A stretch of 64,000 bases of DNA from Candidatus Dojkabacteria bacterium (lineage in GTDB: Bacteria; Patescibacteriota; Dojkabacteria; J137). Under the pieces are notes generated by a model. The model searched no databases and was not told the DNA's origin. It saw only the letters and a program-made list of their open reading frames with translations. The DNA lies in the NCBI GenBank assembly GCA_025993875.1, contig JAMQHH010000001.1, forward strand, positions 2,785-66,784, read 5' to 3'. The position numbers and the translations under genes were made by a program. This document shows, piece by piece, positions 30,041 to 59,310 of this stretch. Within the stretch, counting starts at the first letter, position 1. Each line of letters starts with the position of its first letter.

Positions 30041-30475
30041 GGGGATGTTTTTCGACGGTTTCCAATTGCTCTTTAAAACAAGCCGGGAATTTAATTGCTT
30101 GTCCCGTAAAAATAAGTAATTACTTTGACTAAACGTCAATCCAATTACCAAGGTATTTAACAGCGCAGTTAATGCTGTTGCAAATTTATTTGCAAAACCA
30201 GCTTTAGCTTTTGCTTAAGTTAAATGCTGCAGCCCGAAAAAAAAGTAGAGCTGCCGTTGTATAACTTTTTTCTCTGCGAAGGTTTTACGGCGAAATATAG
30301 CAGAGGTGCTTTATCTAATTTTTAATTTCTTTTATTTAGGTAAAAAAGACTATAAAGGAAACAAGATAGAGTTTTTGTAGATTTTTATTCTACCTTGTAA
30401 ATAAATCTAATAAGCTTGTAATAATTTTATCGGCAAAAGTTTTCCGGACATCCCGTATAGGGATCATCTCCACCA
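30041..30475 (+). ncRNA. ssrA: tmRNA (SsrA), one-piece
   Basis: 5' GGGGATGTTTTTCGACGG resembles the E. coli tmRNA 5' end GGGGCUGAUUCUGGAUUCGACGG. The 3' ...CATCTCCACCA pairs with the 5' end to give a 7-bp acceptor stem with encoded CCA. The internal frame GCA AAT TTA TTT GCA AAA CCA GCT TTA GCT TTT GCT TAA (ANLFAKPALAFA*) looks like a degradation tag. Confidence 0.75.
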
Positions 30476-34194: not shown

Positions 34195-35424
34195 ATGCTT
34201 AATTTTTTTAAAAAGAAAAATTTTCCTCTTCCGGTATCTGCAGAGGAATTATTTTTGGCAATAGATATTGGTACAGAGTATGTAAAGGTAGCTGTTTATA
34301 GGCTGGATGGAATGGAAGTTGAAGTTATAGGCTACGCCAGAAGAAAACAGATGGAGAGCACAATGTATGCTGCATATATTGTAAATTTAAAGGAGGCCAA
34401 AGATACAGTAGATAAATGCATAGGAGATGCAGTTTTAATGGCAAGAGAGGTTGTTTCAGAAGATAATTTTAGTTTGCCAAAACAGGCAATTATCGGAATC
34501 GCCGGTGAACTTGTTCAGGGAGTTACAGTGGTTGTTAATCTCGAAAGAAACGCTCCCGATACTCCTATTAATCAATCAGAGATAGATTCGATTATCGCAA
34601 AACTTAAAAAACAGACTTTCGAAAGTACAAAAGAAGAGATATCTCAAGAAATAGGACTTAAGCCTAATCAAATTGACGAAATTGATACTTATATCAATAG
34701 CGTATATGTCGACGGAGTTAGAGTCTTAAATCCTCTGGGATATGTAGGAAGCGAGATGGTTTATAATATGTATTCCACCTTTGCACCAAAACTGCATATA
34801 AATAGTGTAAAGCAGCTTGCAGAACAGCTTAATTTATCTATTTTAAAGCTGGTAGTAGAGCCTTATGCTTTATCCCTTGCTTTAAAAGATATTAGAGACA
34901 AAAATGCGAGCTCAATTCTTTTAGATATAGGAGGCGGCACAACTGATGTTGCACTTGTTCATAACGGTGATTTGGCAGGTACAAAAATGTTTGCTATTGG
35001 AGGAAGGGTATTTACAAAAAGCATTCAAAAATATTTAAATCTCGATTTTGATCAGGCCGAACAGATAAAATTAGATTATTCAAACAATAAAGTTGATTCA
35101 GAAAGAAAAAGAGAGGTTTCTACAATAATCGGAAACTCCACAAAGATCTGGCTGGATGGTGTTGAGATAGCGTTATCCGACTTTGACGATGTTACAACTT
35201 TCCCTGCAAAATTTTTGGTTTGTGGAGGGGGTGCATTATTACCCGATATTCAAGAGGGGCTAATTTCTTATCCATGGCAAAACTATCTGCCTTTTCCTAA
35301 ACATCCGAAAGTAGATTTTATTTTTCCTAATCATATAACTAAATTAACCGATAAAACCAGAACTGCAACATTGCCTATGGATGTAACACCATTGGCTTTG
35401 GCTCGAATGCATCTGGAAATTTAA
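34195..35424 (+). CDS. actin-like ATPase of the FtsA/PilM family (second copy; PilM-like)
   Basis: LFLAIDIGTEYVKVAVY phosphate-1 and ILLDIGGGTTDVALV phosphate-2 motifs. The short basic N-terminal leader resembles PilM. Distinct from the ftsA at 5213. Confidence 0.65.
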   Translation: MLNFFKKKNFPLPVSAEELFLAIDIGTEYVKVAVYRLDGMEVEVIGYARRKQMESTMYAAYIVNLKEAKDTVDKCIGDAVLMAREVVSEDNFSLPKQAIIGIAGELVQGVTVVVNLERNAPDTPINQSEIDSIIAKLKKQTFESTKEEISQEIGLKPNQIDEIDTYINSVYVDGVRVLNPLGYVGSEMVYNMYSTFAPKLHINSVKQLAEQLNLSILKLVVEPYALSLALKDIRDKNASSILLDIGGGTTDVALVHNGDLAGTKMFAIGGRVFTKSIQKYLNLDFDQAEQIKLDYSNNKVDSERKREVSTIIGNSTKIWLDGVEIALSDFDDVTTFPAKFLVCGGGALLPDIQEGLISYPWQNYLPFPKHPKVDFIFPNHITKLTDKTRTATLPMDVTPLALARMHLEI

Positions 35425-39570: not shown

Positions 39571-39933
39571 TTGCACAAAAAATTTATGAGAATAATAATA
39601 GTAAACTATTTTACCTGGTGGTATTTGTTTGTTGTAAAAAAAGCTTTTACAACTTTAGTTTTTAACCCCTTTGTTTTTTCACTCTATAAAACGAAGACAT
39701 TGCCTATGCTTAAAAATTTTTCTGTCCCTTTATTTAGAAGTACAGAGTGGGGTGGAAAATATTTTAGCTTTTTTATTAGGTCTTGTTGGATAATTTTGGG
39801 AACCGCCATTTCATTTTTAAAAGTTATTCCGGGGTTATTTTTTTGGCTGGCAATAACTTTCGTTCCAGTTTTGATCTGGTTGCAGGTTATAAATTTTTTG
39901 ATTATTAATATCAATGGAGCTACTAAAAGATAA
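39571..39933 (+). CDS. small multi-TM membrane protein, hypothetical
   Basis: 120-aa ORF with ~3 hydrophobic helices. Overlaps the start of the Clp ATPase gene. Confidence 0.35.
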   Translation: MHKKFMRIIIVNYFTWWYLFVVKKAFTTLVFNPFVFSLYKTKTLPMLKNFSVPLFRSTEWGGKYFSFFIRSCWIILGTAISFLKVIPGLFFWLAITFVPVLIWLQVINFLIININGATKR

Positions 39934-42496
39934 AGAAAAAATAGGAGAGTATGGTGCTTATTCAATTTATTTAAATTATAAGAGCCTTTTAGGTGCCCGA
40001 GGCCTTAGAAAGCAGATATCTTTCACCGAAAAATTGCTGGGTAGGGTTTTACTGATTATTGGGTCGATCTCTTTTGGAGCTTGGATATATCTTTACTTAA
40101 TGGCAGGCAAATTTAACTGGGCTACTTTAATTCTTCCGCAAAATTTTCCGGATTTTTTTATTACAATCTCTCTTTTTCTTTTTACACTAGGAAGTTTTTT
40201 GTTAAGAAATAAGTCGGTGTTTGATCGTGATATTGGGCTTGTTAATATTGATGAAATTAATAGCCTAACTAAAAAAGGCAGATTATTTTTAGATAAAAAT
40301 TTAAGCGAAAAAATTCTTAATTCTATCGATTATTTTTATTACATAGATTATTCCCATTTTTTTCAGAATTTCTTTTTATTTATTTTTAAGCAAAAAAAGA
40401 TAGATAAACTAATCAACCAGAGGCTTGGGTTGTCTTTTTCACAGATAAGTTTGGCAGTAAAAAATTTTTCAACAAAAAAAAATCCTGAATTTAAAAAGAT
40501 CTTTCCCGAACTTATGCTTTTGGCATTTGATCTGGCTGTAAAAAACAGGTTAAAAATAATTGACGAGGTTGTGCTGGCGACTACAATTCTTAAATATTAC
40601 ATTAAAAGTTTTTTACTAGAGTTTGATGTGACCGATCTAGAAATTGAAAGCCTAAAACAGTGGGTGTTCGATTCGATAAAATTAAGGGAATTTAAAAAAA
40701 GATGGAAAGTTATTTCCAAGTTAAAGCCTGTCGGAGCAATCAACTCTGCATTTACTTCCAAAGCTACCCCGATTTTAGATAAATACTCAACAGATTTAAC
40801 AAAACAGGTTGCTTTAGGGGAGTTCGGCACTGCACTTGGCAGAGAAGGTGCTATCTTAAATATTTTAAAGTATCTGGAATCTTATCAAAGTACTTCGGTT
40901 TTACTTTTGGGAGATCCGGGCGTAGGTAAAACAAGGGTATTTTTAGAGCTGGCAACAAGGATGGTTATAGAAGATGTCCCTAAATCCATTTTAGATTCAA
41001 GATTGATATCAATAGATATATCAGAACTTTCCGCAAAGCTAGAAAATAAAGAGGAGATCGAACAGGTAATAATAAAAATGATGGAAGAGGTGCTTGGTTC
41101 AGGAAATATTGTATTGGTAATTGATCATCTTGCGCAGATATGGGATATTTCGGGAGGTGCAGCAGGTGAACTGGTAGATTTACTGGCGTCTTTTGTAAAA
41201 AAATCAAAAATAAAATTAATAGCTTCATCTAATTATTCAGACTATATTAAATTTATTAAACCTCAGCCTTTATTGGCCTCACTTTTTACTGTGGTCGACC
41301 TACCCGAGCCGCAGCCTTTTTTAGCAATGCAAATACTTTTAGACGAAAGTGTTTTATTAGAAAAAAAATTTCAGGTAAAAGTTGAAACTTCAGCTATAAA
41401 AAGAATCATAGAGTTTGCGAACAAATTTGATACTCATAAAAAAATGCCTGCCAAAGGGCTGGAACTTTTAAACGAGGTTATTTTGGAGGTAAAAAATAAG
41501 GGTGAAAATCATATAAATTCGAGAAGTGTGGAGGAACTTCTAGGAAAAAAATTAGGAGTAAGTGTAGGGTTTATTTCTCAAACCGAAGCTGAAAAACTTT
41601 TACACCTAGAAAGTGTATTGGGACAAAGAGTAATTGGGCAACTGGAGGCTATCAGTTCTGTTTGTAACGCTATTCGGAGAACAAGAACCCGAGTTTCTTA
41701 CTCCAAAAAACCAGTAGCGTCGTTTTTGTTTTACGGACCTACAGGGGTAGGGAAAACAGAAGTTGCAAAAGCGCTTGCCCAAGTTTATTACGGAAGTGAT
41801 CAGAAAATAATCAGGTTAGATATGTCGGAATATAATGAGGAGGAAAATCTTTACAGATTAATCGGCAAAACTGACAAAGATGGAAATTTTGAAGGAGGAT
41901 ATTTAACCGAGTCGGTAAGAGCAGCGCCATTTTCGCTTATACTTTTAGATGAACTTGAAAAATGTAATAAAAAGGTGCTGGATCTTTTTTTGCAGGTACT
42001 CGATGAAGGTTCGTTAACCGATGGCATAGGTCGCAAAATTGATTTTTCCAGTTGCATTATTATTGCAACCTCAAATGCCGGAACTCAGGCTATTACTGAA
42101 CTTATAGAAAAAACAGATAATTATAAAGAGGTCGAAATAGCATCCAGATCCGAACTGGAAAAAGTCTATAGAATAGAATTTTTAAACAGATTCGATAAAG
42201 TAATTATGTTTAGACCTTTAACAAAATCAGAGGTAAAATTAATAATTGAAAAATTTTTAAATATTTTAGCCAAAAGATTGCTGGAGCAAAGTATAGTTTT
42301 AAAATGGGACGATAAAACTATAGAAAGTTTATTATTAAAAGGGTATAGTTATAAGTACGGAGCTAGAGAAATTTTAAGAACAATAACCGAGGAAGTAGAG
42401 GATAAAATAGCAAATTTAATAATCGAAAAAAAAGCAAAACCAGGTTCGATAATAACTTTTGCAGGTCTAACTCCCGAAGTTAGTATTAGCAGTTAA
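39914..42496 (+). CDS. ClpA/ClpB/ClpC-family double-AAA+ ATPase with N-terminal transmembrane domain
   Basis: NBD1 Walker A LLGDPGVGKTRV and NBD2 Walker A FYGPTGVGKTEVAKALA. RLDMSEYNEE...GGYLTE and LLDELEKCNKKVLDLFLQVLDEGSLTDGIGRKIDFSSCIIIATSN are ClpA/B signatures. The first ~280 aa contain 2-3 hydrophobic helices in place of Clp_N repeats. Confidence 0.8.
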   Translation: MELLKDKEKIGEYGAYSIYLNYKSLLGARGLRKQISFTEKLLGRVLLIIGSISFGAWIYLYLMAGKFNWATLILPQNFPDFFITISLFLFTLGSFLLRNKSVFDRDIGLVNIDEINSLTKKGRLFLDKNLSEKILNSIDYFYYIDYSHFFQNFFLFIFKQKKIDKLINQRLGLSFSQISLAVKNFSTKKNPEFKKIFPELMLLAFDLAVKNRLKIIDEVVLATTILKYYIKSFLLEFDVTDLEIESLKQWVFDSIKLREFKKRWKVISKLKPVGAINSAFTSKATPILDKYSTDLTKQVALGEFGTALGREGAILNILKYLESYQSTSVLLLGDPGVGKTRVFLELATRMVIEDVPKSILDSRLISIDISELSAKLENKEEIEQVIIKMMEEVLGSGNIVLVIDHLAQIWDISGGAAGELVDLLASFVKKSKIKLIASSNYSDYIKFIKPQPLLASLFTVVDLPEPQPFLAMQILLDESVLLEKKFQVKVETSAIKRIIEFANKFDTHKKMPAKGLELLNEVILEVKNKGENHINSRSVEELLGKKLGVSVGFISQTEAEKLLHLESVLGQRVIGQLEAISSVCNAIRRTRTRVSYSKKPVASFLFYGPTGVGKTEVAKALAQVYYGSDQKIIRLDMSEYNEEENLYRLIGKTDKDGNFEGGYLTESVRAAPFSLILLDELEKCNKKVLDLFLQVLDEGSLTDGIGRKIDFSSCIIIATSNAGTQAITELIEKTDNYKEVEIASRSELEKVYRIEFLNRFDKVIMFRPLTKSEVKLIIEKFLNILAKRLLEQSIVLKWDDKTIESLLLKGYSYKYGAREILRTITEEVEDKIANLIIEKKAKPGSIITFAGLTPEVSISS

Positions 42497-42505: not shown

Positions 42506-42925
42506 ATGAAAAAAAATATTGTATCACTAGGATTTTCGGTTTTGATTTGTGGAGTATTATTATTTTCCCCGACGCAATATGTATCGGCTCAACAGCCGTC
42601 TGTCACTACAACAATAGCTGCAGGATTGGATAATTTAAATTATAAAATTCCTTGCCCAACAGTTTTTTGTTCGCTGGAAGATGTAGTAAATGCTGCAGCC
42701 AATTTGATAAGGCCAATATTCGTACTAACTTTTATTGCTATGTTAATTTATGGAGCATGGCTATGGCTTACATCACAAGGGGACGATAAAAAGCTCGGTA
42801 CGGCAAAAAAAGTAATTATTGCTGCAATTATAGGTTTTGCACTGGCTGTTTTTGCACCTACAATAGCACAGTTTATTGGCGGGCTTTTAGGGGTAAGTAA
42901 TGTATTTTCGTTACCAACAACATAA
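42506..42925 (+). CDS. secreted two-helix membrane protein, VirB2/TrbC pilin-like (paralog 1)
   Basis: Sec signal peptide ending VSA|QQ. Cys pair CPTVFC. TM1, loop SQGDDKKLGTAKK, then TM2. Confidence 0.6.
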   Translation: MKKNIVSLGFSVLICGVLLFSPTQYVSAQQPSVTTTIAAGLDNLNYKIPCPTVFCSLEDVVNAAANLIRPIFVLTFIAMLIYGAWLWLTSQGDDKKLGTAKKVIIAAIIGFALAVFAPTIAQFIGGLLGVSNVFSLPTT

Positions 42926-42927
42926 AT

Positions 42928-43581
42928 ATGTTTAAAAAAATAACTGCTACAATTACAATGCTCATTACTGCAATATTTTTGGTCACTTCTTTGGAGGTAT
43001 ATGCTCAGCCGGCAAACACTAATCAAACAGGCCAAGGCTCATGCGAGGGTGATCCCTATAAAATACCTGCACAATGCGAGGATAATTTTGTAATTGATCA
43101 GGAATGCCAGACAATTAAAATTTTAAGCCCGCAAAGTGAACAGGCAAGAACCTGCTGCCTTCATAAGTGTAAAGATGAACAGACTTCCGTAACAGGAAAT
43201 ACCGATAATATTTTAGATCAAAAGGATCTTTCTTTCTTAAATGTTTTTGGAGTAAGGCTTGGACTGGATTTTTCGGAGTCCGGCCGAACAAAAACAATTA
43301 CCACGTTAATTAATCTTGTTATTACAACAATTCTTGGAATATTTTCTATGTATGCACTTTTTAGAGGAGTTTACCTTGTGGCAATACAAAGGCCTGTTTT
43401 AATAAAACCCGAAGATATTTCTAAGTTAAACAAACAATTTACAAGTTTAATTGTAGGGTTTGTTTTGGCCTGGGGTATAATTTTTATAATTCAGGTAGTG
43501 TTTGCATTTTTGGGGCTAGGCAGCTTAACAGACTTTAATTTCGAAAACGCAGCAAACGGTATAACAATAACTATTAAGTAA
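42928..43581 (+). CDS. secreted Cys-rich ectodomain + two-helix pilin-like protein (paralog 2)
   Basis: Signal peptide ending VYA|QP. A 7-Cys N-terminal module followed by two TM helices. Confidence 0.55.
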   Translation: MFKKITATITMLITAIFLVTSLEVYAQPANTNQTGQGSCEGDPYKIPAQCEDNFVIDQECQTIKILSPQSEQARTCCLHKCKDEQTSVTGNTDNILDQKDLSFLNVFGVRLGLDFSESGRTKTITTLINLVITTILGIFSMYALFRGVYLVAIQRPVLIKPEDISKLNKQFTSLIVGFVLAWGIIFIIQVVFAFLGLGSLTDFNFENAANGITITIK

Positions 43582-43593
43582 GTAATTATTAAA

Positions 43594-44196
43594 ATGAAAA
43601 AACATTTACTTTCTATATTGTTTTTTATTTTGGCTGCCTTAGCTGCAGGAGCTTTTCCCATTGCTTATGCGCAATCAACAGAAAATAATATTGATATTGG
43701 TTTGCCCGAAGTTGCAATAAGTCCGATTACAATCCCTCTTTTTGGCGCACCAATCGATTTAGGAAATTTTTCAATATACTCCTGGGCAGTATTTTTGGGA
43801 GGAATTATCTTTGCCCTAATTATTGCTTATTGGATATTTTTGTTTTTAAGAGCAGGGGTAGAGGCAATGCAAAGTAATGGAAAACCCGAAGTTTTAGCCG
43901 ATGCAGGCAAAAAGGCAAGATCAATTTTAATTTCGGCTGCATTAACTTTTTTAGTGCCAATTATTTTAAGTGTAATTGGAGCTATTATGGGTATAGGCAA
44001 CGTTTTGGCATGGCCAAAGATGTTTAGTTTGTGCAACACCAAGGTTAGGCAATATATTGATGAAAATGGAGATCTCTCAACCGTATTCGATTCTCCTGCA
44101 GGCAAGAGTTTCTATTTTCAATATTATATTGAAAATCCAGATACTGCCGATTCAAATTGTTTTGCAGATTTAGGTAATAAATCTATTTATAGATAA
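43594..44196 (+). CDS. secreted two-helix pilin-like protein with C-terminal Cys-containing tail (paralog 3)
   Basis: Signal peptide ending AYA|QS. TM1, loop RAGVEAMQSNGKPEVLADAGKK, then TM2. C-terminal ~60 aa carry 2 Cys. Confidence 0.55.
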   Translation: MKKHLLSILFFILAALAAGAFPIAYAQSTENNIDIGLPEVAISPITIPLFGAPIDLGNFSIYSWAVFLGGIIFALIIAYWIFLFLRAGVEAMQSNGKPEVLADAGKKARSILISAALTFLVPIILSVIGAIMGIGNVLAWPKMFSLCNTKVRQYIDENGDLSTVFDSPAGKSFYFQYYIENPDTADSNCFADLGNKSIYR

Positions 44197-44209
44197 ATAA
44201 TTCGTATTT

Positions 44210-44656
44210 ATGAATAATATTGAAGTATTAAAAAGAATAAAAATAACTTGCATTTTTCTTTTGATGCTTATTACCCCTTTAACTTTGTCAACAGCTGTAT
44301 ATGCTCAAACCGATTCCACCTCTTTATGTGGGCTTTTCCCATGCGATCAATACACCCAGGACAGCAAAAATATAGATGTTGGATCTTTAATTAAATTTGG
44401 TTTAAGTGCTGTATTTGTTGCAATTATAATTATTGGAATTTTTTCGGTAATTAGAGCTGCTTTAAAAATAATTCAAAGTGAGGGAGACCCTAAAAAACTG
44501 GAGGAGGGAACAAATGTTTTAAAGGGAGTATGGTTTGGGCTGGTTATTATCTTTTTGGGGGTATTTGGGATAATTTTTATATTAATATTTTTTAATGCCC
44601 AGGGGGCAGCAGATCCAAATACAAACCTGCCACCTGGAGTTTTAACAAATCCGTAA
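44210..44656 (+). CDS. secreted two-helix pilin-like protein (paralog 4)
   Basis: Signal peptide ending VYA|QT. LCGLFPC Cys pair. TM1, loop IQSEGDPKKLEEG, then TM2. Confidence 0.6.
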   Translation: MNNIEVLKRIKITCIFLLMLITPLTLSTAVYAQTDSTSLCGLFPCDQYTQDSKNIDVGSLIKFGLSAVFVAIIIIGIFSVIRAALKIIQSEGDPKKLEEGTNVLKGVWFGLVIIFLGVFGIIFILIFFNAQGAADPNTNLPPGVLTNP

Positions 44657-44733
44657 TTTAAGTTAAACTATTGACTGTAGTAATTTATAATGATAAATTC
44701 AGAGGAGAATATATATAAATATTTAAAATTAGT

Positions 44734-45204
44734 ATGAAAAAAATTGCTCTTTCGGTGTTATTTCTTGCCATTTCGTTTTTTTCTATGCCTTTCCCTGTTT
44801 CTGCTGCAGGTACAAATAATCTTGTCTGCCAAATCTTTCCATTCTTAAGTTCAGTAGATGCATTTGGCATAAACTCTCTTTGCAGTGGTGTTACTGATCC
44901 TTCTGCGGCAACAAGTTTTATAAGATTTTTACTATCAGCAGTATTTGTTGGGATAATAATTATCTCAATCTATGTAGTAATCAAATCGGCATTAAAATAC
45001 ATACAAAGCGAAGGGGATGATAAAAAAATAGGAGAAGCAAGCAAAGCAATAAAAGCAGTGTTTATAGGTATAGCAGCTCTTTTTGTAGGAGTAATAGGAA
45101 TAATAATAGTGCTGGCATTTTTTAAGGCAACAGGGGCTTTAAAAACGGAAGATACACCAGACATAATTGATAACCTGCTAAGTACACCTTCACAATCGAA
45201 ATAA
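44734..45204 (+). CDS. secreted two-helix pilin-like protein (paralog 5)
   Basis: Signal peptide ending VSA|AG. VCQIFPF...LCSG Cys pair. TM1, loop IQSEGDDKKIGEASK, then TM2. Confidence 0.6.
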   Translation: MKKIALSVLFLAISFFSMPFPVSAAGTNNLVCQIFPFLSSVDAFGINSLCSGVTDPSAATSFIRFLLSAVFVGIIIISIYVVIKSALKYIQSEGDDKKIGEASKAIKAVFIGIAALFVGVIGIIIVLAFFKATGALKTEDTPDIIDNLLSTPSQSK

Positions 45205-45270
45205 GCACAGAGGTGATTCTGAGCCTTTTAAAACTTTTTTGAGGGCACTAAATAAGTATACAAAGATAAA

Positions 45271-46128
45271 TTGAAAAGAACTTTGCTGAAAACAATAAAA
45301 ACCGTTCCTTTTTCCCAATGGACAGGATTTAAGAAAAATTTTTTATTGCTACTTCTTTCTCTCTTATGTTTTATAAACTTTACGCAAACAGTTTCGGCCC
45401 AGTTTAGCAGCTCAGTTTTATCGGGTAACGATCCGGCCAGTTACGTTTGCCCGGGTGAAGATCCAGGCCTTCCGGTTAAAAGTGCAGACGATACTTGTAG
45501 TGCAGCAGACGGTAAATGTCGCACCCTGCCTTATTTGGATTCCACTTCTGGTTATTATGTTTGTAAATCAGACACCGGCATTGTAAGAGCAACACTAAAA
45601 GCTCCGCCATTGCAGCAACTTGAACTTTGGTTTAGAAGAATTTTGTATGCCATATGGGCAATTGTAGGATCTTTTTCTTTTGTTATGCTTATATACCTTG
45701 GTTATCAGTATATGATTCGCGGAGGAACAAGCGATCAGGAACTGGTAAAACTAAGAAAAGCGATTATTAATTACGTAGTTGGTTTTGCTTTAGTTTTTCT
45801 TTCTATTCCAATTTTAACTACCTTTTTTACAGTACTGGGAATAAATAAAAATGTAACTTGTTACGATGTGGCAATGCCTGGTTTTCAATTTTTCTTTTCG
45901 GAACTTTGCACTGATCCAAAGTATATACTTGTAAACGACCCATGCACATATTACGATAAAGCTGAGGGATATGCGTGCCCAGAAGTGGGAGAGACAGGTG
46001 TGAGGTGTATTATTAATCCTACGATTAACCCAACAGAGATACAATACAAATGTATATCAATAGAAGGATCATCTTCTGGCGCTGGAATTTGGAAACTAAT
46101 CGAAAGTGGAGTTCATGAAGAGTTTTAA
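45271..46128 (+). CDS. secreted Cys-rich two-helix pilin-like protein with Cys-rich C-terminal domain (paralog 6)
   Basis: Signal peptide ending VSA|QF. A 5-Cys N-module. TM1, loop RGGTSDQELVKLRK, then TM2. The ~95-aa C-terminal domain has 7 Cys. Confidence 0.55.
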   Translation: MKRTLLKTIKTVPFSQWTGFKKNFLLLLLSLLCFINFTQTVSAQFSSSVLSGNDPASYVCPGEDPGLPVKSADDTCSAADGKCRTLPYLDSTSGYYVCKSDTGIVRATLKAPPLQQLELWFRRILYAIWAIVGSFSFVMLIYLGYQYMIRGGTSDQELVKLRKAIINYVVGFALVFLSIPILTTFFTVLGINKNVTCYDVAMPGFQFFFSELCTDPKYILVNDPCTYYDKAEGYACPEVGETGVRCIINPTINPTEIQYKCISIEGSSSGAGIWKLIESGVHEEF

Positions 46129-50339: not shown

Positions 50340-50544
50340 TTTATCGAAAGAAATATTAGAATTTTTAAAACTAGCCGCAATTTTATTTGGGCTTTTTCAT
50401 GTTTTGTTTGGATTTGTCTTATTTGTTAGAACCAATAGAATAAATAGCATTTTAAGAACAAGTAGTTCCTGGATAATTTCGATTATTGGAATTTTTTACA
50501 TTACTTTATTAATATTTGTCGTTTTATTACTTATATCGATTTAA
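50329..50544 (+). CDS. small two-TM membrane protein, hypothetical
   Basis: 71-aa ORF with two hydrophobic helices. Confidence 0.3.
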   Translation: MEINLSKEILEFLKLAAILFGLFHVLFGFVLFVRTNRINSILRTSSSWIISIIGIFYITLLIFVVLLLISI

Positions 50545-50545
50545 T

Positions 50546-53032
50546 ATGAAGTTAAGAGTAGAGTTTTTAAAAGGAGAAAATCGGGATAACGAATGGAAGG
50601 GAGCATTCTGGTTTCAGTCTGATACCGAAGATTTTCAAATATATTCTGTTATAAGAATAGCCTCCGAGGCTAACGTAAACCTGGAAATTATCGCCAAAAC
50701 TTTCTGGAACGATTTGCAGGACTCGTTTATTGACCTTGCAAAGAAACATTCCGATATGGCTTTAAGACTGGAGGATGCTGTGTGGAAAATGAAAGCAAAA
50801 ACCGAAGCTTTATTATCGAGAGATAGTGTAATAATGGAAAAAGGGATAGATATGGAGATGGGAATTCTAGTCTTTTGTGAAAATGTTGCCTATTGCGCTG
50901 TGATTGGGGAAAGTAAGATATTAATTTATAGAAATGAAAGGATGTCGGATATTAGCCAGGCGCTTATAGATTCTAACTTAACAGGATTTGTTAAGTTTGG
51001 AAGTTTTAAATTAGAACCCGAAGATAGAATACTTTTGGTAATTTCAAAAAACCTATCATTAAATTTTGCTGATTTAACAAATGCTGCCAAAGAACTCAAT
51101 ATTAACCTTTTAAATAATAACATTACTAAAAACCTTGATTGTGTTTTGTTTTTAGGAAGTGAAATATTAGATTGGTATCAAGAGATTGCTAAAACTACGG
51201 ATATCGAAGAGATAACTCCAAATCAAAACAATCCCGGTTTAGAAAATGAATCCGAATTTCCCGAGGAGAGCAATTTTGAAAAACAGCCGAAAGATATCAA
51301 AAAAGAAAGTGCAGAGGAAATTTTTCCTGATAAAGAGTATAGCTTTCCCTACCAAGAGCCGAAAAGAACTAATGGTTTTTTGGGTAGCATTAAATCTAGA
51401 TTTAAATTTAGCAACAGAGCTACCGATTCTATAATTACCAACAATGAAGCTGACTTAAAGAAGAGAGTTGCAAAGGAAGATGGAATGTTTAAGAAAGAAG
51501 AACATATTGATTTAGAACCAAAACGGAGAATAAGAATAAAACTAGATTTAAATATAGTTAAGTTAGCTGTAAAAAAAGCTTTAACTTTTCTCGTATCTAT
51601 ACCTGCGAAACTCTCAAATTATCTTAAAAATAATAAAAGTACCTACCTGCACATAATAAAGAATTTATTTGGTGGTATAAAGAAGTTTCTAAATTATTTA
51701 TGGCAGCTTTTTCAAAGAGAGATTATTGGTACTTCTGATAGAAGAGATTTCTTTATAAAGAGTAAGAGGAGAAGCCGAAATAGAAAAATCTTAGCTATAA
51801 TATTGACTATAATAGTCGTGTTTTTATTCTTTAGTTTTAGAGATGCCGAAAATAAAAGGATGGAGCAAGAGTACAAGGATAAGATTTTAACAACAATAAA
51901 GCAACTGGAAGTAAGCCAAACTGAAGTTTTAAACCAAAGTGGTTTAGATTCTTCTAAATCTGAACCGCTAAAAACTGAGCTTGCCAATAAACTTAACCAG
52001 CTTACTGTTGATGCTCAAAAAGAGATAAAAAGAATAACCGGTGTATCCGAAAACGAAAAAAAATATGCGACATATATAGCTAACTTAAACAAGATTATTC
52101 AAAAAAATCAAGAGATTTTAGACAAACTCAATAATGTTTTTACAGTTAATAACTCTAATATTAAAATTATTGCAGATCTCGAAAAATTATTTCCTGGTTC
52201 AGACATTAAAGACATTGAATTCTCTGGGGGAAATATTTACGCAGCAGATTCGGGAAATAATGCAATTTATAAAATTCCAATAAATTCCGGAGAAGAAACA
52301 AGAATGATAGTGCAAGATTTGGAATCCCCATCACTACTGGCCAAAAGCGTCGATGGAGATATAATTGTCTATGATAACAGTAATAGTGGGGCAATTGGTA
52401 AAATTTATACAAAAGAATCGGACAGGTTTGAAAGATTTGCAACACTAATTTATTCCTCTATTGGAAATGTAAAAGCAGTTGATATATATTCTGGAAACGA
52501 TGCATTATACGAGCTAAGAACATTCCCCAATCCATATATTTTTAAAAGAGAAAGAGAAGGAGCAGGATATGCTCCTGGAGGCGCTAATTATATTACGATT
52601 AATCCACCTAACTGGAGGGAAGATTCTGATTTTTCTAAAGGGCTTGATATTGCGGCTCCATATGAACTATATGTACTAATAGAGGGATCCGGTATAAAAA
52701 GGTATTTATCTGGTGGAGAAAATACACTAACACCCGACTTATACAAAAATTTTTCTACCGAGGATATAACTTCACTATCTAATGCAAGGGCGATAGATGC
52801 AAGAGGCAGTTATATGGCTGTATCTGATCCGGAAAATAAGAGGGTACTTCTTTTTAACATTGAATCGAATGAATCAAAAAGCCTTTTATTTATTGGACAA
52901 TATATATATAGGGGAGAGGAAGAAGTGTTAGAAACCCAGAAAGAAATTCTTATAAACGAGCTTTCGGCAAACAATTTGGAAATATATGTATTGGATCAAA
53001 ATCGCGTTATAGGCTTAAGCTTCCAGAACTAA
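50546..53032 (+). CDS. large single-pass membrane protein: cytoplasmic N-domain (possible degenerate PP2C-like fold), TM, extracytoplasmic beta-propeller-like domain
   Basis: MGILVFCENVAYCAVIGESKILIYRNE resembles the PP2C strand-GDSR region with the catalytic residues altered. TM helix ILAIILTIIVVFLFFSF at ~residue 420. C-terminal repeats (NIYAADSGNNAIYKI; DGDIIVYDNSNSG) are NHL/YVTN-like. Start taken at MKLRVEF. Confidence 0.45.
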   Translation: MKLRVEFLKGENRDNEWKGAFWFQSDTEDFQIYSVIRIASEANVNLEIIAKTFWNDLQDSFIDLAKKHSDMALRLEDAVWKMKAKTEALLSRDSVIMEKGIDMEMGILVFCENVAYCAVIGESKILIYRNERMSDISQALIDSNLTGFVKFGSFKLEPEDRILLVISKNLSLNFADLTNAAKELNINLLNNNITKNLDCVLFLGSEILDWYQEIAKTTDIEEITPNQNNPGLENESEFPEESNFEKQPKDIKKESAEEIFPDKEYSFPYQEPKRTNGFLGSIKSRFKFSNRATDSIITNNEADLKKRVAKEDGMFKKEEHIDLEPKRRIRIKLDLNIVKLAVKKALTFLVSIPAKLSNYLKNNKSTYLHIIKNLFGGIKKFLNYLWQLFQREIIGTSDRRDFFIKSKRRSRNRKILAIILTIIVVFLFFSFRDAENKRMEQEYKDKILTTIKQLEVSQTEVLNQSGLDSSKSEPLKTELANKLNQLTVDAQKEIKRITGVSENEKKYATYIANLNKIIQKNQEILDKLNNVFTVNNSNIKIIADLEKLFPGSDIKDIEFSGGNIYAADSGNNAIYKIPINSGEETRMIVQDLESPSLLAKSVDGDIIVYDNSNSGAIGKIYTKESDRFERFATLIYSSIGNVKAVDIYSGNDALYELRTFPNPYIFKREREGAGYAPGGANYITINPPNWREDSDFSKGLDIAAPYELYVLIEGSGIKRYLSGGENTLTPDLYKNFSTEDITSLSNARAIDARGSYMAVSDPENKRVLLFNIESNESKSLLFIGQYIYRGEEEVLETQKEILINELSANNLEIYVLDQNRVIGLSFQN

Positions 53033-53046: not shown

Positions 53047-53505
53047 ATGAAAAAAGTATTAGCAAGCAATAAAAGCATAGGTTTCAATTACGAAATTTTA
53101 GAAAAACTTGAAGCAGGAGTAGTTCTTCTAGGCTGGGAGGTAAAAGCAATAAAAAACAGAAGAACAAACATGGAAAATGCTTATGTCATTATAAGAAGCA
53201 ACCAGGTTTTGTTAAAAAATCTTGTGTTGCCATTAAATTCCGATACAAAATTTTCGGATAAAAGCTTGCAAAATCGAGACAAAAAGTTATTATTAAACAA
53301 AAGAGAGATTGTTAAAATAAATCAAGCGGTAAAAATTCCTGGAAATAGTTGTGTACCCTTAAATATACACTTAAACGAGGGTAATCTTATTAAAATAGAA
53401 ATCGCAGTGGTTCGTGGAAGAAAAAAGTTTGATAAAAGAAATCTTTTAAAGAAAAGAGATATTCAAAAGCAGATAAATACAGAGAGAAAAAAATATAATT
53501 TTTAG
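53047..53505 (+). CDS. smpB: SsrA-binding protein SmpB
   Basis: NKSIGFNYEILEKLEAGVVLLGWEVKAI...LLLNKREI...CVPLNIHLNEGNLIKIEIAVVRGRKKFDKR matches SmpB over its full length, including the basic C-terminal tail. Confidence 0.85.
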   Translation: MKKVLASNKSIGFNYEILEKLEAGVVLLGWEVKAIKNRRTNMENAYVIIRSNQVLLKNLVLPLNSDTKFSDKSLQNRDKKLLLNKREIVKINQAVKIPGNSCVPLNIHLNEGNLIKIEIAVVRGRKKFDKRNLLKKRDIQKQINTERKKYNF

Positions 53506-53507
53506 AT

Positions 53508-54080
53508 ATGTCTACTAATATTTCAAATAAACAACTTCAAGACTTACTTAAAGCGCTAGAGCGTTTTGGGTTTAAGTTTTACGGCTATAACGAATCTCGG
53601 GAACCTTTAGTGCTAGCTCCAAATGGACAAATAACCTCAGTTTTGGTTGCATATAATTTTGTAAAAGATCAAATCGCAAAGCAAAAAATGCAAAATGCTA
53701 CCGGCTCTGGCTTGGGCTCACTCGAAAGCATAAACTTTTCCGATATTACTCCCGAAAAAATAGAAACGAATTTAGAAAACAATGTAGAAAAATCAATAGA
53801 AAAATCGCAGGAAACAACTTATAAGAAGGATGGATCGAATATGGGCTCATCGGTTTATCCGAGTAGTAAACAATCTAATGATGAAAAAAAAGGAAGTAGT
53901 AAAGTCGGGGAGATTCCAGTTCCATTCAGTTTTGGATTTTCACCAAAAAACTTCAATCCTACATCTGTGCAAGAAACATTAGACTTTATAAAGACCGCGA
54001 AAGTTGAAGATATAACCAGCTCCTCCAAGTGGCTCTCGGTGCAATTTCAAAAGTGGCTGGAAGAGTATCAAAAAAGATAG
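53508..54080 (+). CDS. hypothetical soluble protein
   Basis: ORF tightly packed between smpB and the coupling-protein-like gene. No recognisable motif. Confidence 0.4.
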   Translation: MSTNISNKQLQDLLKALERFGFKFYGYNESREPLVLAPNGQITSVLVAYNFVKDQIAKQKMQNATGSGLGSLESINFSDITPEKIETNLENNVEKSIEKSQETTYKKDGSNMGSSVYPSSKQSNDEKKGSSKVGEIPVPFSFGFSPKNFNPTSVQETLDFIKTAKVEDITSSSKWLSVQFQKWLEEYQKR

Positions 54081-54092: not shown

Positions 54093-56546
54093 ATGCAGGG
54101 AATAAATATTTTGTTTAGTAGCGATATTTTAGCAAGATTGGGGCTTATAATAGGCCTTGTTTTTTTATTCCTGCTAATTATTTACTTGATTATAAGGGTA
54201 GCGATAAACTATGTAAAAGAAGCTGTTTTAAAGAAAAAATCTTTAAACCTCTCTTTTTTCGAAATTAAGGTTCCTCAAAGTAATGACGTAGAAATAAAAG
54301 CTGCAGAGCAAATGTATTCCGGTTTATCTACAATTACCGATAAGCTTAAAGGAATAGCAAAATACATTGGGGCAAACACATTTGTAAGCTTTGAAGTTAT
54401 TGCATTTAAGGAAAGTATAAGATTTTTTGTTGTTTGTCCAAAAAAAATTGCTGCAATAGTTGATAGACAAATAAATGGAACTTATCCTGTTGCCGAAATT
54501 GATTCTATTAAGGAATACAACTTGTTTAAAGACGAAGGAAGTGTTGCTTTTGGTGTTTTAGAACTCGATAAAGAGTCAAAAATTCCTATCCAGACATTTG
54601 AGGAGCTTCCGGTCGATACAATTGCTACCTTAACCGATACCTTAAGCAAGCTAGAAGAGGGAGAATCGGCAGCTTTTCAGATGGTTATATCCCCCGTATC
54701 TAGTGAATGGAGGTCTAAAGTAAAGCAATATCTTAAAAAAAATAGAGAAAAACCAGCAGATGAAGGGGATAAAGATAAGCCAAAACCTTCAAGCCCCAAA
54801 ATAGACGAAGAGGCCTTAAACATGGTAGATAAAAAGATTAGTAAGCCCAATTTTTATACAGATGTCCGAGTTATTGTAGTATCCGAAGATAAACAATTAG
54901 GAGAATCTCATCTTAATAACATTCTAAGTACATTTAATCCGTTTGCCAAAGAGGGCGGAAATCGGTTTAAAAAATCGAAAGATAAAAAATTAACAAAAAA
55001 TGTAATTACAGATTTTATTTATAGAATATCAAGGCAGGCAATGGTACTAAATACTGCCGAGCTTGCAACTCTTTTTCATTTGCCTAATAAAAATATAAAA
55101 ACACCTCATATTAAGTGGCTTTTATCTAAAACAGCTCCATCTCCCGATTTTGTTACCTCAAAATTTGATGATGATTATATGTATGTTGGTAAAAATTCGC
55201 ATCGAGGCTCAGCTAAAGAGATCTTTATAAAGCCCGACGATCGACTGAGACATTTTTATGTAATAGGTCAAACAGGTACGGGAAAGTCTAAATTTATGGC
55301 AGGAATGATGATAAGAGATATGAAGCTGGGCCATGGGTGCGCGTGGATAGAACCGCACGGAACTGATGCAGAGCTTATTTTACAGCAGGTGCCGCCTGAA
55401 AGAATTGATGATGTAATCTTTTTTGATCCCTCTGATATAGAGAGGCCTATAGGTTTAAACATGCTGGAATTTTCAAACGACGCACAAAGAACCATGGTTA
55501 CAAACGAAATGCTTAATATTTTTGATACTCTTTTTGACTTAAGAACAACGGGAGGTCCAATTTTCGAACAGTATTTTAGGTTTGGGATTATGTTATTAAC
55601 TGAAGATCCCGAATCTGGCTGCACCCTAATGGAGGTACCAAAAATTTTTGCAGATGATGGGTATAGGGAGTATAAACTTTCGAAAACGAAAAATCAGGAA
55701 GTAATAGACTTTTGGCGAAAACAGGCAGAAAAAGCCGGTGGGGAAGCTTCGTTAAAAAATATTGTGCCATATATTGTTTCAAAACTGGCGCCTTTTCTTA
55801 CCAATGCGTATATAAGGCCAATTATCTCGCAGCAAACTTCGGCAATTAATTTTAGAAAAATTATGGACGAAGGCAAAATTTTAATAGTAAAACTTTCTAA
55901 AGGTAAAATTGGTGACTATAATGCAAATCTTTTAGGAATGATTATTATTGGAAAGTTGCTGGTTGGTGCATTGGAAAGAGAGGATTTGGATGAAAAGTTA
56001 AGAAGACCATTTTATTTGTATATTGACGAGTTCCAAAACTTTTTGACTGATGGAATTAATATTATACTTTCTGAGGCCAGAAAATATAAACTGGCGCTAA
56101 CAATGGGACATCAATTTCTAGGACAGCTTACCAGAGCTAACAACAATACAAAAATCAGGGATGCTGTTTTTGGAAATGTAGGTAATAAAGCCATAATGAG
56201 AGTAGGAGAAGACGATGCTGCCTTTTTAAAGAAAGTTGTTGAAGGTCCTTTCGAAGAGAGCGATTTACAGCAACTGCCTAATGTTACGGCAGTAATAAAG
56301 CTCTTAGTCGAAGGAAAACCAACGCCTCCATTTACAGTCAGGTCTTTTTACGGGGAGTCTCCTTATGATTTAATTTCTCCATATAATAAAGAGCTTGCAA
56401 ACACAATAAAGCAGATCTCAAGACTAAAGTATGGAAGAGACATAAACATTGTAGAAAATGAAATAAAGCAAAGAGGAACCTTTATTAAGGAAAAAAAGGA
56501 CGAAAATAAAGGAGGAGGGCTGGGAGATTTTGGATTTGGTTTCTAA
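54093..56546 (+). CDS. type IV coupling protein-like ATPase (VirD4/TraG/TrwB family) with N-terminal TM helix and ~350-aa N-terminal extension
   Basis: Walker A HFYVIGQTGTGKSKF. AWIEPHGTDAEL and VIFFDPSDIERPIGLNMLEF fit the TrwB/TraG block (iivDpkGd ... v.v.dP.d..s...NpL). A ~240-aa all-alpha-like insertion precedes Walker B FYLYIDEFQNFL. This is followed by the arginine/glutamine sensor-like SEARKYKLALTMGHQFLGQL. Confidence 0.65.
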   Translation: MQGINILFSSDILARLGLIIGLVFLFLLIIYLIIRVAINYVKEAVLKKKSLNLSFFEIKVPQSNDVEIKAAEQMYSGLSTITDKLKGIAKYIGANTFVSFEVIAFKESIRFFVVCPKKIAAIVDRQINGTYPVAEIDSIKEYNLFKDEGSVAFGVLELDKESKIPIQTFEELPVDTIATLTDTLSKLEEGESAAFQMVISPVSSEWRSKVKQYLKKNREKPADEGDKDKPKPSSPKIDEEALNMVDKKISKPNFYTDVRVIVVSEDKQLGESHLNNILSTFNPFAKEGGNRFKKSKDKKLTKNVITDFIYRISRQAMVLNTAELATLFHLPNKNIKTPHIKWLLSKTAPSPDFVTSKFDDDYMYVGKNSHRGSAKEIFIKPDDRLRHFYVIGQTGTGKSKFMAGMMIRDMKLGHGCAWIEPHGTDAELILQQVPPERIDDVIFFDPSDIERPIGLNMLEFSNDAQRTMVTNEMLNIFDTLFDLRTTGGPIFEQYFRFGIMLLTEDPESGCTLMEVPKIFADDGYREYKLSKTKNQEVIDFWRKQAEKAGGEASLKNIVPYIVSKLAPFLTNAYIRPIISQQTSAINFRKIMDEGKILIVKLSKGKIGDYNANLLGMIIIGKLLVGALEREDLDEKLRRPFYLYIDEFQNFLTDGINIILSEARKYKLALTMGHQFLGQLTRANNNTKIRDAVFGNVGNKAIMRVGEDDAAFLKKVVEGPFEESDLQQLPNVTAVIKLLVEGKPTPPFTVRSFYGESPYDLISPYNKELANTIKQISRLKYGRDINIVENEIKQRGTFIKEKKDENKGGGLGDFGFGF

Positions 56547-56606: not shown

Positions 56607-56680
56607 AGGCTCGTAGCTCAGTTGGTTAGAGCACGGTTCTTATAAAGCCGGGGTCCGCAGTTCGAATCTGCGCGAGCCTA
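56607..56680 (+). tRNA. tRNA-Ile (anticodon UAU)
   Basis: Hand-folded cloverleaf. Acceptor AGGCTCG/CGAGCCT, D-stem GCTC/GAGC, anticodon stem CGGTT/AGCCG with loop CTTATAA, T-arm CGCAG-TTCGAAT-CTGCG. Body resembles bacterial tRNA-Ile. Confidence 0.75.
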
Positions 56681-56749: not shown

Positions 56750-57595
56750 TCATTCAGGAAAAATTTTTGGGATTAAAAATTTTTCTGTTCTTTGGTGTCT
56801 GTTTGAATTTGTAAGGTATTTTTTAGTAGTAATTATATTTTTATGGCCAACCAATTTACTTACTGTTTTTAGTTCCATGCCCGAAGCAAGCTGAAATACT
56901 ATAAAAGTATTGCGTAAGTCGTTTACACATAAATTTTTTACTTTAGCCTTCTCAAATATTCTATCTAGACCGCTACGTATATTTCTTACTTCTATAGACT
57001 TCCCGGTGTTAGTAGAAAAAATAGGATAATCGGGTAGAGATCTTTTTCCAGCTAATTTTAAGTATTGATCTAATAGCTGATGTATCTTTGAGTTTAGCGG
57101 TACCTGCCTGCTTGCAACTGTTATAAATTTGAAATTCTTATCTAAATCTTTTATTTTAAGTGCACTAAGCTCAGAAATCTTTAGACCGGTCTGAAGAAAA
57201 CACTCAAATATTGTTAGCAACTTAATATTTTCAACACTCCCCAAAATTATTGAATTATATTCATTTTTTGTTAAAACTCGTAAGGTTTTTACCCTATATT
57301 TAGGATGCGAGATTGCTTTTGCAGGATTTATTTTAATAACTTCTACACTAACCAGATAATCAAAAAATTTTTTTAGACTGTTTATTTTTCTTGAAACAGA
57401 TTGTGGAGAAAGTTTGTATCTATATTTTAGAGTGGTTAGCAATTGCAAAAGATCTTTGGTTGAAACTTTTGGCAAGCTATCTCCTGAAATTGCAATTATT
57501 TGATTTAAATCGTTCGTATATGCATGTATCGTTGACTCTGTTCTGCTATTATGTTTAAGATAGGTTGTAAATTTGGATAGGTAATCTTGTATCAT
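56750..57595 (-). CDS. tyrosine recombinase, XerC/XerD-like (phage-integrase family)
   Basis: N-terminal SAM-like core-binding domain (TIHAYTNDLNQ...FFDYL). C-terminal catalytic motifs LRNTFIVFQLASGMELKTVSKLVGHKNIITTKKYL (R, HxxR, catalytic Y). 281 aa. Confidence 0.8.
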   Translation of the reverse strand: MIQDYLSKFTTYLKHNSRTESTIHAYTNDLNQIIAISGDSLPKVSTKDLLQLLTTLKYRYKLSPQSVSRKINSLKKFFDYLVSVEVIKINPAKAISHPKYRVKTLRVLTKNEYNSIILGSVENIKLLTIFECFLQTGLKISELSALKIKDLDKNFKFITVASRQVPLNSKIHQLLDQYLKLAGKRSLPDYPIFSTNTGKSIEVRNIRSGLDRIFEKAKVKNLCVNDLRNTFIVFQLASGMELKTVSKLVGHKNIITTKKYLTNSNRHQRTEKFLIPKIFPE

Positions 57596-58072: not shown

Positions 58073-58116
58073 CTGCTTTTTTATAGTATAATCTCATCAC
58101 TATTATAGAAATTGTT

Positions 58117-58188
58117 CGCGGGGTAGAGCAGTGGCAGCTCGCAAGGCTCATAACCTTGAGGTCGTACGTTCGAGTCGTACCCCCGCAA
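58117..58188 (+). tRNA. initiator tRNA-fMet (anticodon CAU)
   Basis: CGCGGGGTAGAGCAGTGGCAGCTCGCAAGGCTCATAACCTTGAGGTCGTACGTTCGAGTCGTACCCCCGCAA. Has a C1:A72 mismatch and is close to E. coli tRNA-fMet (CGCGGGG...CCCCCGCAACCA). Confidence 0.85.
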
Positions 58189-58285
58189 AGTTTTCTAAGT
58201 TAGATAACAAAACAGGAAAACTGATTTGTTATCTGCATTAGAAATAAAGCAGATAAAAGCCCCTACACGTTTGTCGGGGCTTTTT

Positions 58286-59077: not shown

Positions 59078-59192
59078 AGATTAACTTTTACCATTTTGCT
59101 AAAATTCTTAGCCGATTTTAAAGCTTTTTTTGGTAAAATTACAGTAGGCAGGTGTTAGACTCAAGTTATTTCGTCTGATAAAAGTTATTAAT

Positions 59193-59266
59193 AGCAGGAT
59201 AGCTCAGAAGGTTAGAGCACAGGATTCATAAACCTGAGGTCGGGAGTTCGATTCTCCCTCCTGCTA
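59193..59266 (+). tRNA. tRNA-Met (anticodon CAU; elongator or possibly Ile2/lysidine type)
   Basis: Acceptor AGCAGGA/TCCTGCT, D-arm GCTC-AGAAGGTTA-GAGC, anticodon loop TTCATAA, T-arm GGGAG-TTCGATT-CTCCC. The 31:39 pair is an A-A mismatch. Confidence 0.75.
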
Positions 59267-59310
59267 ATTAGTTAAAGACGTTTTTAGTATTTTAAACATA
59301 ACAAAAATTT

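Follow-up and report, generated by a model that had tools for sequence, protein, structure and literature searches.

The 64-kb stretch of DNA analyzed here (64,000 nucleotides, hereafter the window; GC content ~35%) comes from contig JAMQHH010000001.1 of a Candidatus Dojkabacteria bacterium, a tiny and probably host-dependent organism of the candidate phyla radiation (CPR). On its + strand it carries a gene whose product combines a single N-terminal transmembrane (TM) helix, a domain of the Pfam family DUF8128 and an ATPase of the kind found in type IV coupling proteins (T4CPs). The best explanation as a whole, to which we give a probability of about 0.6, is that this gene is the chromosomal CPR copy of a T4CP subtype of monoderm bacteria and archaea and that it serves the CPR type IV secretion system (T4SS). 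The two parts of this reading are not equally strong: the protein very probably belongs to the monoderm/archaeal DUF8128 subtype, and the chances that it couples to the CPR T4SS are about even.

The open reading frame (ORF) is real, as the database holds one 100% identical protein (P0001) and one at 88% identity, together with thousands of full-length relatives at 36-70% identity. The named relatives are mainly from Candidatus Dojkabacteria, with several further CPR lineages. An AlphaFold2 (AF2) model of the whole protein had a predicted local distance difference test score (pLDDT) of 88.4 and a predicted template-modelling score (pTM) of 0.78. The ORF and the motifs named in the original prediction, an earlier note made from the sequence alone, were each located exactly where it had placed them. 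The features of the gene are listed below, with residue invariance judged on a profile of 45 homologues (A1).

54093..56546, + strand: whole gene, ATG to TAA ORF of 817 aa (TM anchor, DUF8128 and T4CP-type ATPase).
54138..54194 (aa 16-34), + strand: single N-terminal TM helix, Kyte-Doolittle 3.23 over 19 residues, conserved family-wide.
54240..55127 (aa ~50-345), + strand: DUF8128 (PF26449) alpha/beta domain, with PF26449 on P0001 and homologues and a predicted fold like that of the VirB4 N-terminal domain (NTD).
54750..54812 (aa 220-240), + strand: Lys/Asp/Pro-rich low-complexity loop KPADEGDKDKPKPSSPKIDEE inside DUF8128, pLDDT ~50.
55050..55085 (aa 320-331), + strand: junction motif NTAELATLFHLP at the end of the N-terminal domain, with N320, E323, H329 and P331 invariant.
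55179..56372 (aa ~363-760), + strand: TrwB/VirD4-type P-loop ATPase domain, assigned by hhalign, Foldseek and PDB profile search.
55266..55289 (aa 392-399), + strand: Walker A GQTGTGKS, aligned with the TrwB P-loop, with G392, G395, G397 and K398 invariant.
55479..55868 (aa 463-592), + strand: all-helical insertion between Walker A and Walker B, eight helices in the AF2 model.
56022..56033 (aa 644-647), + strand: Walker B IDEF (D645/E646), aligned with TrwB D356/E357 and invariant in the family.
56076..56129, + strand: ARKYKL (aa 662-667)...GHQFLGQL (aa 672-679) block, with R663, K664, Q674 and Q678 invariant.
56418..56441 (aa 776-783), + strand: C-terminal helix motif SRLKYGRD, kept in nearly all family members.
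56511..56543 (aa 807-817), + strand: Gly/Phe-rich disordered tail GGGLGDFGFGF, pLDDT <50.

The blocks IEPHG (aa 419-423), FFDPSD (aa 443-448) and PIGLNMLEF (aa 452-460) lie between Walker A and the helical insertion. As originally described, one strong helix (aa 16-34) is followed by ~350 residues before the P-loop, which is a non-canonical form of anchor compared with the two helices typical of T4CPs. The segment that follows the helix is rich in Lys and Arg and, by the positive-inside rule, suggests an N-out topology with the remainder of the protein in the cytoplasm. The long helical insertion was likewise recovered, aa 463-592 being all-helical in the AF2 model; there it appears to sit where the all-alpha domain of T4CPs does, and the TrwB alignment given below spans this region with low column confidence. 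The Lys/Asp/Pro-rich linker and the Gly-rich tail singled out in the original prediction both exist, but they are lineage-specific and poorly conserved: the presumed linker is a loop within DUF8128 whose unconserved sequence ranges from 23 to 67 aa among family members, and the tail is restricted to a Dojkabacteria-like subset.

The ATPase half was compared with T4CP and VirB4 references by sequence. In hhalign the A1 profile matched TrwB of R388 with 92.6% probability (E 4.4e-7, 264 columns), in an alignment that extends from before Walker A, across the helical insertion, to the Q...QL block. Within it R663 corresponds to R375, the arginine finger of TrwB, Q674/Q678 to Q386/Q390 and D645/E646 to D356/E357, so that Walker B, the arginine finger and the R...Q...QL residues are in register with TrwB, as had been proposed, and are invariant. 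Against PDB sequences the profile found DotL and TrwB first, HerA weakly and VirB4 not at all, and its matches to the VirB4 proteins TrwK and PrgJ in hhalign were trivial. In phmmer searches of 85 related loci, TrwB by itself recovered the family's gene at 62, and PrgJ and TrwK failed to detect it. Since the TrwB alignment, the PDB profile search and the phmmer results agree and the VirB4 references match trivially or not at all, the motor was assigned to the T4CP family. These results indicate that the C-terminal half of the protein is, as judged from its sequence, a TrwB/VirD4-type coupling-protein ATPase, in keeping with the earlier assignment to TrwB/TraG/VirD4 rather than to VirB4/VirB11 or FtsK.

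The curated models agreed in part. All Pfam and NCBIfam matches on the protein were of T4CP or HerA type and none was to PF03135, as the original prediction would have it, but all were sub-threshold: TraG-D_C scored 21.1 (cutoff 22), TrwB_AAD_bind 16.1 (20.5) and DUF87 18.2 (23.2), and the TraD/VirD4-like NCBIfam matches fell far under their cutoffs. Many homologues carry precomputed PF10412, PF12696 or PF02534. The VirB4 signatures PF03135, PF19044 and PF12846 gave no Pfam match on the protein. FtsK models of Pfam and NCBIfam did not match it, FtsK was absent from the top 50 structural matches, and plasmid genes annotated as FtsK gave marginal tblastn matches (28% coverage, E 5e-4). A single-sequence search of the PDB with the protein returned noise only.

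The sub-threshold DUF87/HerA match, taken with Foldseek matches to HerA (E 1.8e-12) and DndH-C (TM target 0.71) and a PADLOC match to mad8 (E 2e-9), could point to a defence or repair ATPase of the HerA/DndH/MADS type. However, such similarities are generic within the FtsK/HerA superfamily, the protein is membrane-anchored, and its alignment with TrwB is longer and includes the catalytic residues. MADS, Dnd and NurA partners were not found, the two upstream genes scanned along with it having no PADLOC match and the flanking genes no such Pfam match; moreover, nearly all CPR carry the gene as part of their core, in contrast to the patchy occurrence of defence islands. A role of this type is highly improbable, and the defence-system reading of the mad8, HerA and DndH matches was rejected for lack of partner genes.

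The ~350 N-terminal residues, to which the original prediction assigned no known function, correspond to DUF8128. PF26449.1 is precomputed on the 100% identical P0001 and on nearly all homologues; a local Pfam scan of the protein itself gave no PF26449. When residues 46-362 were modelled alone (pLDDT 85.6, pTM 0.85) and compared with the PDB by Foldseek, the top 14 matches were without exception chains of TrwK/VirB4 (E 6e-8 to 4e-5, TMq 0.44-0.51), beyond which came unrelated folds with a template-modelling score of ~0.3. The fold of the domain is predicted by this comparison of models to be VirB4 NTD-like. In R388 the VirB4 NTD (residues 15-400) alone forms the central-outside VirB4 dimer and is wrapped by VirB3 (PMC9259494).

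With the whole model, the best PDB matches by E-value were also VirB4/TrwK (5e-16, ~890 columns, high root-mean-square deviation), followed by HerA and then TrwB. TrwB, Cag-beta and DotL were matched with template-modelling scores (target) of 0.57-0.66 over the C-terminal 430-550 columns only. VirB4 is the best match of the full-length model because the N-terminal 350 residues of the modelled protein are DUF8128, with the predicted VirB4 NTD-like fold. The structural comparison with TrwB put forward in the original prediction consequently holds for the C-terminal columns, and over the full length the best Foldseek E-values belong to VirB4, a result which that prediction had counted against a coupling protein.

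Sequence profiles did not reproduce the likeness to VirB4. The DUF8128 profile (A2) showed no sequence similarity to the CPR VirB4 profile and was negative against the probable TrsD of locus L063, and a broadened DUF8128 profile was negative against five VirB4 N-termini and against full-length VirB4s. The family profile gave a weak match to the CPR VirB4 profile (40% probability, E 3e-4), which begins at the junction motif NTAELATLFHLP, aligned with DTTSLAMTFPF of CPR VirB4. DUF8128 or PF26449 was not mentioned in the literature searched, and in the sections of PMC12102498 that were searched neither the domain nor a VirB4-like fold is described.

Compared with TrwB of R388, VirD4, TraD and DotL, the protein is alike in being a membrane-anchored P-loop ATPase with alignable catalytic residues and a helical insertion at the position of the all-alpha domain, and differs in having a single TM helix where two are usual, ~300 extra residues (DUF8128) between anchor and motor, sub-threshold scores on curated T4CP hidden Markov models, and no relaxase or T4SS operon around it. 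With VirB4 (TrwK and the CPR VirB4) it has in common the predicted NTD fold, the layout, in which a RecA-like motor comes after an N-terminal domain, and the weak match at the junction motif; it differs in that PF03135, PF19044 and PF12846 are absent, the N-terminal profiles are dissimilar, the motor is nearer to TrwB and a genuine VirB4 coexists with the family in other genomes.

Proteins of the same two-domain architecture, with only 21-25% identity, are encoded on plasmids, among them those of Bacillus subtilis NZ_CP154917.1 (885 aa), Staphylococcus aureus pWBG707 (863 aa) and Haladaptatus NZ_CP085341.1 (1193 aa). A tblastn search of the protein against 72,556 plasmids matched 416 records, with sources in Bacillus, Staphylococcus, Clostridium and haloarchaea. 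Depending on the record the alignments span query residues 47-805, taking in most of DUF8128 (haloarchaea 91-793, Haladaptatus 47-805, Bacillus 97-786, pWBG707 of Staphylococcus 111-742, Clostridium 98-675). Streptomyces (47 records) and Sulfolobus (11) also matched; among the matches listed, those of Streptomyces were shorter and none was from Sulfolobus. The DUF8128 profile matched the N-terminus of the B. subtilis plasmid protein with 98.7% probability (E 2e-16) and that of the Haladaptatus plasmid protein with 97.4% probability (E 1e-11).

On the Bacillus plasmid the DUF8128 gene is followed directly by the gene for a Replic_Relax protein and then by those for TcpC (VirB8-like), an AAA_10 VirB4 and more conjugal transfer proteins. 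The order is the same on S. aureus pWBG707, with a CHAP hydrolase at the end, and on the haloarchaeal plasmid the DUF8128 gene comes directly after a VirB4-like ATPase. These neighbours (Replic_Relax and/or VirB4) indicate that the homologues occupy the slot of the coupling protein. The T4CP of pLS20 itself is a classical two-TM VirD4, so the Bacillus plasmids with a DUF8128-type protein represent a different type of monoderm conjugation. The combination of TM helix, DUF8128 and T4CP motor is therefore not unique to the window but is a subtype common to CPR and to plasmids of Bacillus, Staphylococcus and haloarchaea. Since the design is also found on Gram-positive conjugative-type and archaeal plasmids, it is a variant, so far little described, of a known protein and no new system. 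The subtype may matter for the spread of genes in Gram-positive bacteria, as it is carried by Staphylococcus, Bacillus and Clostridium plasmids. Its spread over Firmicutes, Actinobacteria and Archaea agrees with the relation of the Patescibacteria T4SS to the monoderm/archaeal MPF-FATA class (PMC12102498). The plasmid proteins differ in setting from the CPR gene, being plasmid-borne beside a replication-relaxation protein, TcpC, VirB4 and CHAP hydrolase, whereas the CPR gene is chromosomal and lies among housekeeping genes.

In CPR the family is widespread. The DUF8128 profile retrieved 4,658 clusters at 50% identity; the proteins have a modal length of ~800-860 aa, and the start of the domain is nearly always 35-60 residues from the N-terminus. 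Full-length relatives are present in at least 598 CPR species-representative genomes of Dojka-, Uhr-, Falkow-, Moran-, Levy-, Davies-, Woese-, Curtiss-, Roizman-, Nomura- and Vogelbacteria, closed chromosomes included. Many of the species-representative records (loci L010, L019, L020, L030, L031, L049 and others) are metagenome-assembled genomes titled 'uncultured Gammaproteobacteria', 'Bdellovibrionales' or 'Bathyarchaeia'; probably these titles are erroneous or the contigs were binned incorrectly.

The publication that bears most on these genes is that of Quinonero-Coronel et al. 2025 (PMC12102498). Of 3,035 Patescibacteria genomes, it reports 2,918 (96%) with VirD4-type T4CP homologues, 5,713 in all and only 148 of them near virB4, and VirB4 in 80% of the genomes. 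In the rows of its Table S3 that were examined there is usually one t4cp1 per genome, away from virB4, which itself adjoins TrsD, VirB3 and VirB2 arrays. The present family shares with these t4cp1 homologues the phylum, the usual single copy per genome and a location almost never near virB4, and it is very probably the t4cp1 class of that work. The original prediction had called a lone coupling protein without VirB4 unusual. It is correct that the 64 kb contain no VirB4, but such isolation is the norm in the phylum, and pilin genes do lie upstream.

The genuine VirB4 of CPR is a separate protein of ~585 aa with PF19044, PF12846 and PF03135, as exemplified by locus L063 (11480-13234, - strand; relatives P0269-P0388). 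Among the best 120 database clusters, from many species, its identity exceeds 80%. The T4CP-like family shows only 36-45% identity between CPR classes; the pace of evolution differs greatly between these two T4SS-type ATPases. VirB4 coexists with a gene of the family in four of the five genomes shared with the published dataset, the fifth being VirB4-negative, and Dojkabacteria assemblies are among those listed as VirB4-positive in Table S1 of PMC12102498.

Two features of the region upstream of the Dojkabacteria gene, both co-directional with it, are the following.

42506..46128, + strand: six VirB2-like T4SS pilin genes in tandem (PF18895), 8-11.5 kb upstream of the gene and straight after ClpB.
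53508..54080, + strand: gene for a 190-aa mostly disordered protein with a PFSFGF motif, separated by a 12-nt gap from the gene.

Two of the pilin genes score above the PF18895 cutoff (38.6 and 37.6 bits) and the other four weakly; each of the six encodes a signal peptide and two TM helices. The co-directional order is GroES, GroEL, ClpB, the six pilins, a 534-aa coiled-coil membrane protein, a SpoIID-like hydrolase, a bPH-domain membrane protein, an 838-aa single-pass protein, SmpB, the 190-aa disordered protein and the gene itself. The arrangement from pilin array to DUF8128 gene recurs in ~10 Dojkabacteria-like loci and not elsewhere among the 85 loci. The window array is without VirB4, TrsD or VirB3 in the window, and the Woesebacteria arrays in the examined rows of Table S3 of PMC12102498 adjoin virB4.

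This arrangement would fit a protein that works as a VirB4-type assembly ATPase (in effect a VirB3-VirB4-like fusion) and both extracts and polymerises the upstream pilins, as part of a minimal pilus system with the SpoIID-like peptidoglycan hydrolase and the membrane proteins. In its favour, Foldseek gives VirB4/TrwK the best E-values with the full-length model and VirB4 as the only match of the N-terminal domain by itself. An N-terminal TM helix joined to a head like that of VirB4 also recalls the VirB3-VirB4 fusions known elsewhere (PMC12102498), and the window has no other VirB4. On the other hand, the motor is T4CP-like and not VirB4-like in sequence, the protein lacks all three of the Pfam domains that the genuine CPR VirB4 has, and that VirB4 coexists with the family in other CPR genomes, Dojkabacteria being listed as VirB4-positive. 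The linkage to pilins is limited to one lineage, other pilin arrays adjoin virB4 and trsD in the examined rows of Table S3, and on plasmids the homologue shares its operon with a separate VirB4. We therefore regard an assembly ATPase as quite unlikely.

Several observations weigh against a T4CP that serves the CPR T4SS. The curated Pfam and NCBIfam T4CP models remain sub-threshold on the protein, and the VirB4-like N-terminal fold is a prediction with moderate scores (0.44-0.51) that sequence profiles do not support. No VirB4, VirB3, VirB6, TrsD or relaxase match was obtained in the 64-kb window, where the gene is the only one for a P-loop protein of FtsK/HerA/VirB4/VirD4 type. Linkage to a relaxase/Dtr or T4SS operon, present for the plasmid homologues, was absent in the window and in most of the 85 related loci, where the recurrent neighbours are housekeeping genes and not T4SS genes: a Xer recombinase (20 loci), a DivIC-like gene (19), SmpB (15), DnaX (12), FtsH (11) and ribonucleotide reductase (10). 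Locus L033 (Levybacteria RIFCSPLOWO2_12_FULL_41_12, GCA_001784155.1) has a gene of the family in a genome listed as VirB4-negative (Table S1 of PMC12102498); either the assembly is not complete or genomes can keep a T4CP-like gene in the absence of a T4SS. The same source also reports that relaxases are almost absent from Patescibacteria and that in S. epibionticum the T4CP homologue is non-essential and the T4SS genes are essential. Wang et al. 2023 described the essential T4SS of S. epibionticum as one that lacks a recognisable coupling protein.

The same neighbours raise the possibility of an exapted housekeeping translocase, that is, a membrane-anchored pump for DNA or protein acting, for example, in chromosome segregation or dimer resolution, FtsK-like and together with Xer. 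The gene occurs almost universally and once per locus, with an identity that follows taxonomy, which suggests vertical inheritance. Xer homologues of the XerC/D/A type adjoin it in 20 of the 85 loci (in Dojka-, Levy-, Davies- and Woesebacteria, the window included), usually with the DivIC-like gene. In PMC12102498 the T4CP-type gene is more widespread than VirB4 (96% against 80% of genomes, besides the VirB4-negative genome above), several Woesebacteria genomes in the examined part of Table S3 have t4cp1 only and no TcpA/FtsK-like t4cp2, and the authors themselves raise exaptation of the Patescibacteria T4CP. A conserved order among housekeeping genes is, however, no proof of a functional link, and in the window a tRNA gene separates the DUF8128 gene from the Xer gene, which lies on the other strand. 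The protein has neither an FtsK gamma domain nor an FtsK_SpoIIIE Pfam match, FtsK-annotated plasmid genes match it weakly, and many CPR genomes have separate FtsK-like (t4cp2) matches in the examined part of Table S3. Since, in addition, its closest non-CPR relatives are found in conjugation modules, we consider a housekeeping translocase improbable, if less so than the assembly ATPase.

Under the preferred reading, a monoderm/archaeal T4CP serving the CPR T4SS, the protein would be anchored by its single N-terminal TM helix with its bulk in the cytoplasm and, by analogy with TrwB, would form a membrane-anchored hexamer that passes DNA or protein to the type IV secretion channel at the expense of ATP. 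By analogy with the VirB4 NTD of R388, DUF8128 may be a docking module that joins the motor to an inner-membrane platform of VirB4/VirB3 type or to itself. The CPR gene would now be near-universal, vertically inherited, chromosomal and unlinked to virB4 and relaxases, and its product would serve the CPR T4SS (VirB4/TrsD/VirB3 with VirB2-like pilins), which presumably acts on the host cell.

A broader possibility is that DUF8128 coupling proteins form a distinct ancient branch of the VirB4/T4CP ATPases, with a VirB4-type docking domain on a T4CP-type motor, domesticated in CPR as a core gene outside conjugation. Such proteins might represent a stage of evolution between the two ATPases of the T4SS, or else their motor might occupy the 'outside' position of VirB4 through NTD-NTD dimerisation. 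In CPR they would then either deliver substrates to the host by way of the essential T4SS or have a chromosomal function like that of FtsK beside Xer. We hold this scenario to be unlikely as it stands.

T4CPs determine what a T4SS exports. The T4SS of Patescibacteria is essential for epibiotic growth; if the protein were its missing coupling protein, it would give a handle on what CPR parasites inject into their hosts or take from them. Orphan T4CPs in CPR have already been published and the present protein is one of thousands alike. The main interest lies in the prediction that a T4CP motor here carries a head like that of VirB4, and in the role of a near-universal orphan T4CP in CPR. A VirB4-like head, if real, would suggest a route by which a T4CP docks on the VirB4 platform, TrwB/VirD4 being absent from the R388 cryo-EM structure (PMC9259494), and would bear on the divergence of the two T4SS motors.

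Other genes of the window were also inspected. The 190-aa protein immediately upstream gave no family match. A small gene occupies its position in loci L001, L003, L004 and L005, at 17-37% identity; with this weak conservation and no family match it was not accepted as a conserved partner, and it may still be a partner of the window gene. Its PFSFGF motif and the GDFGFGF end of the DUF8128 protein may be a shared short linear motif or low complexity. The 838-aa protein (50516-53032, + strand) has a cytoplasmic N-terminal domain and one TM helix (aa 425-443), without a family match in Pfam, NCBIfam or PADLOC; its gene is kept just upstream of smpB in ~10 Dojkabacteria-like loci, and its C-terminal region may, as a guess from sequence, be a repeat or propeller domain. 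The ClpB gene (39914-42496), suspected by its size of encoding VirB4, proved to be ClpB. Promoter and terminator scans around the operon performed no better than on shuffled sequence. Further upstream are two FtsA/PilM-like actin-fold genes (5213-6535 and 34195-35424, both + strand), the second followed by a gene (35430-37406) whose 658-aa product has predicted TM segments and matched neither Pfam nor NCBIfam.

The smpB gene (53047-53505) stands between the membrane-protein genes and the DUF8128 gene, with intergenic gaps of 2-14 nt, and is 23 kb apart from its partner, the tmRNA gene (30041-30475). Downstream of the DUF8128 gene lie genes for tRNA-Ile(TAT), the XerC/XerD/XerA-like tyrosine recombinase (56750-57595, - strand), two tRNA-Met, FtsH and PolA, the ORF that runs off the end of the window being that of DNA polymerase I. 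A 135-aa ORF after the recombinase was considered as the DivIC-like gene, but it has no detectable similarity to the DivIC-like gene of the other loci, and therefore no DivIC was assigned in the window. The tRNA-Ile gene directly downstream of the DUF8128 gene (56607-56680, + strand) has the anticodon TAT, and two tRNA genes with CAT anticodons are close by (58116-58189 and 59192-59267). A tRNA-Ile with a TAT anticodon is an uncommon way of reading AUA in bacteria.

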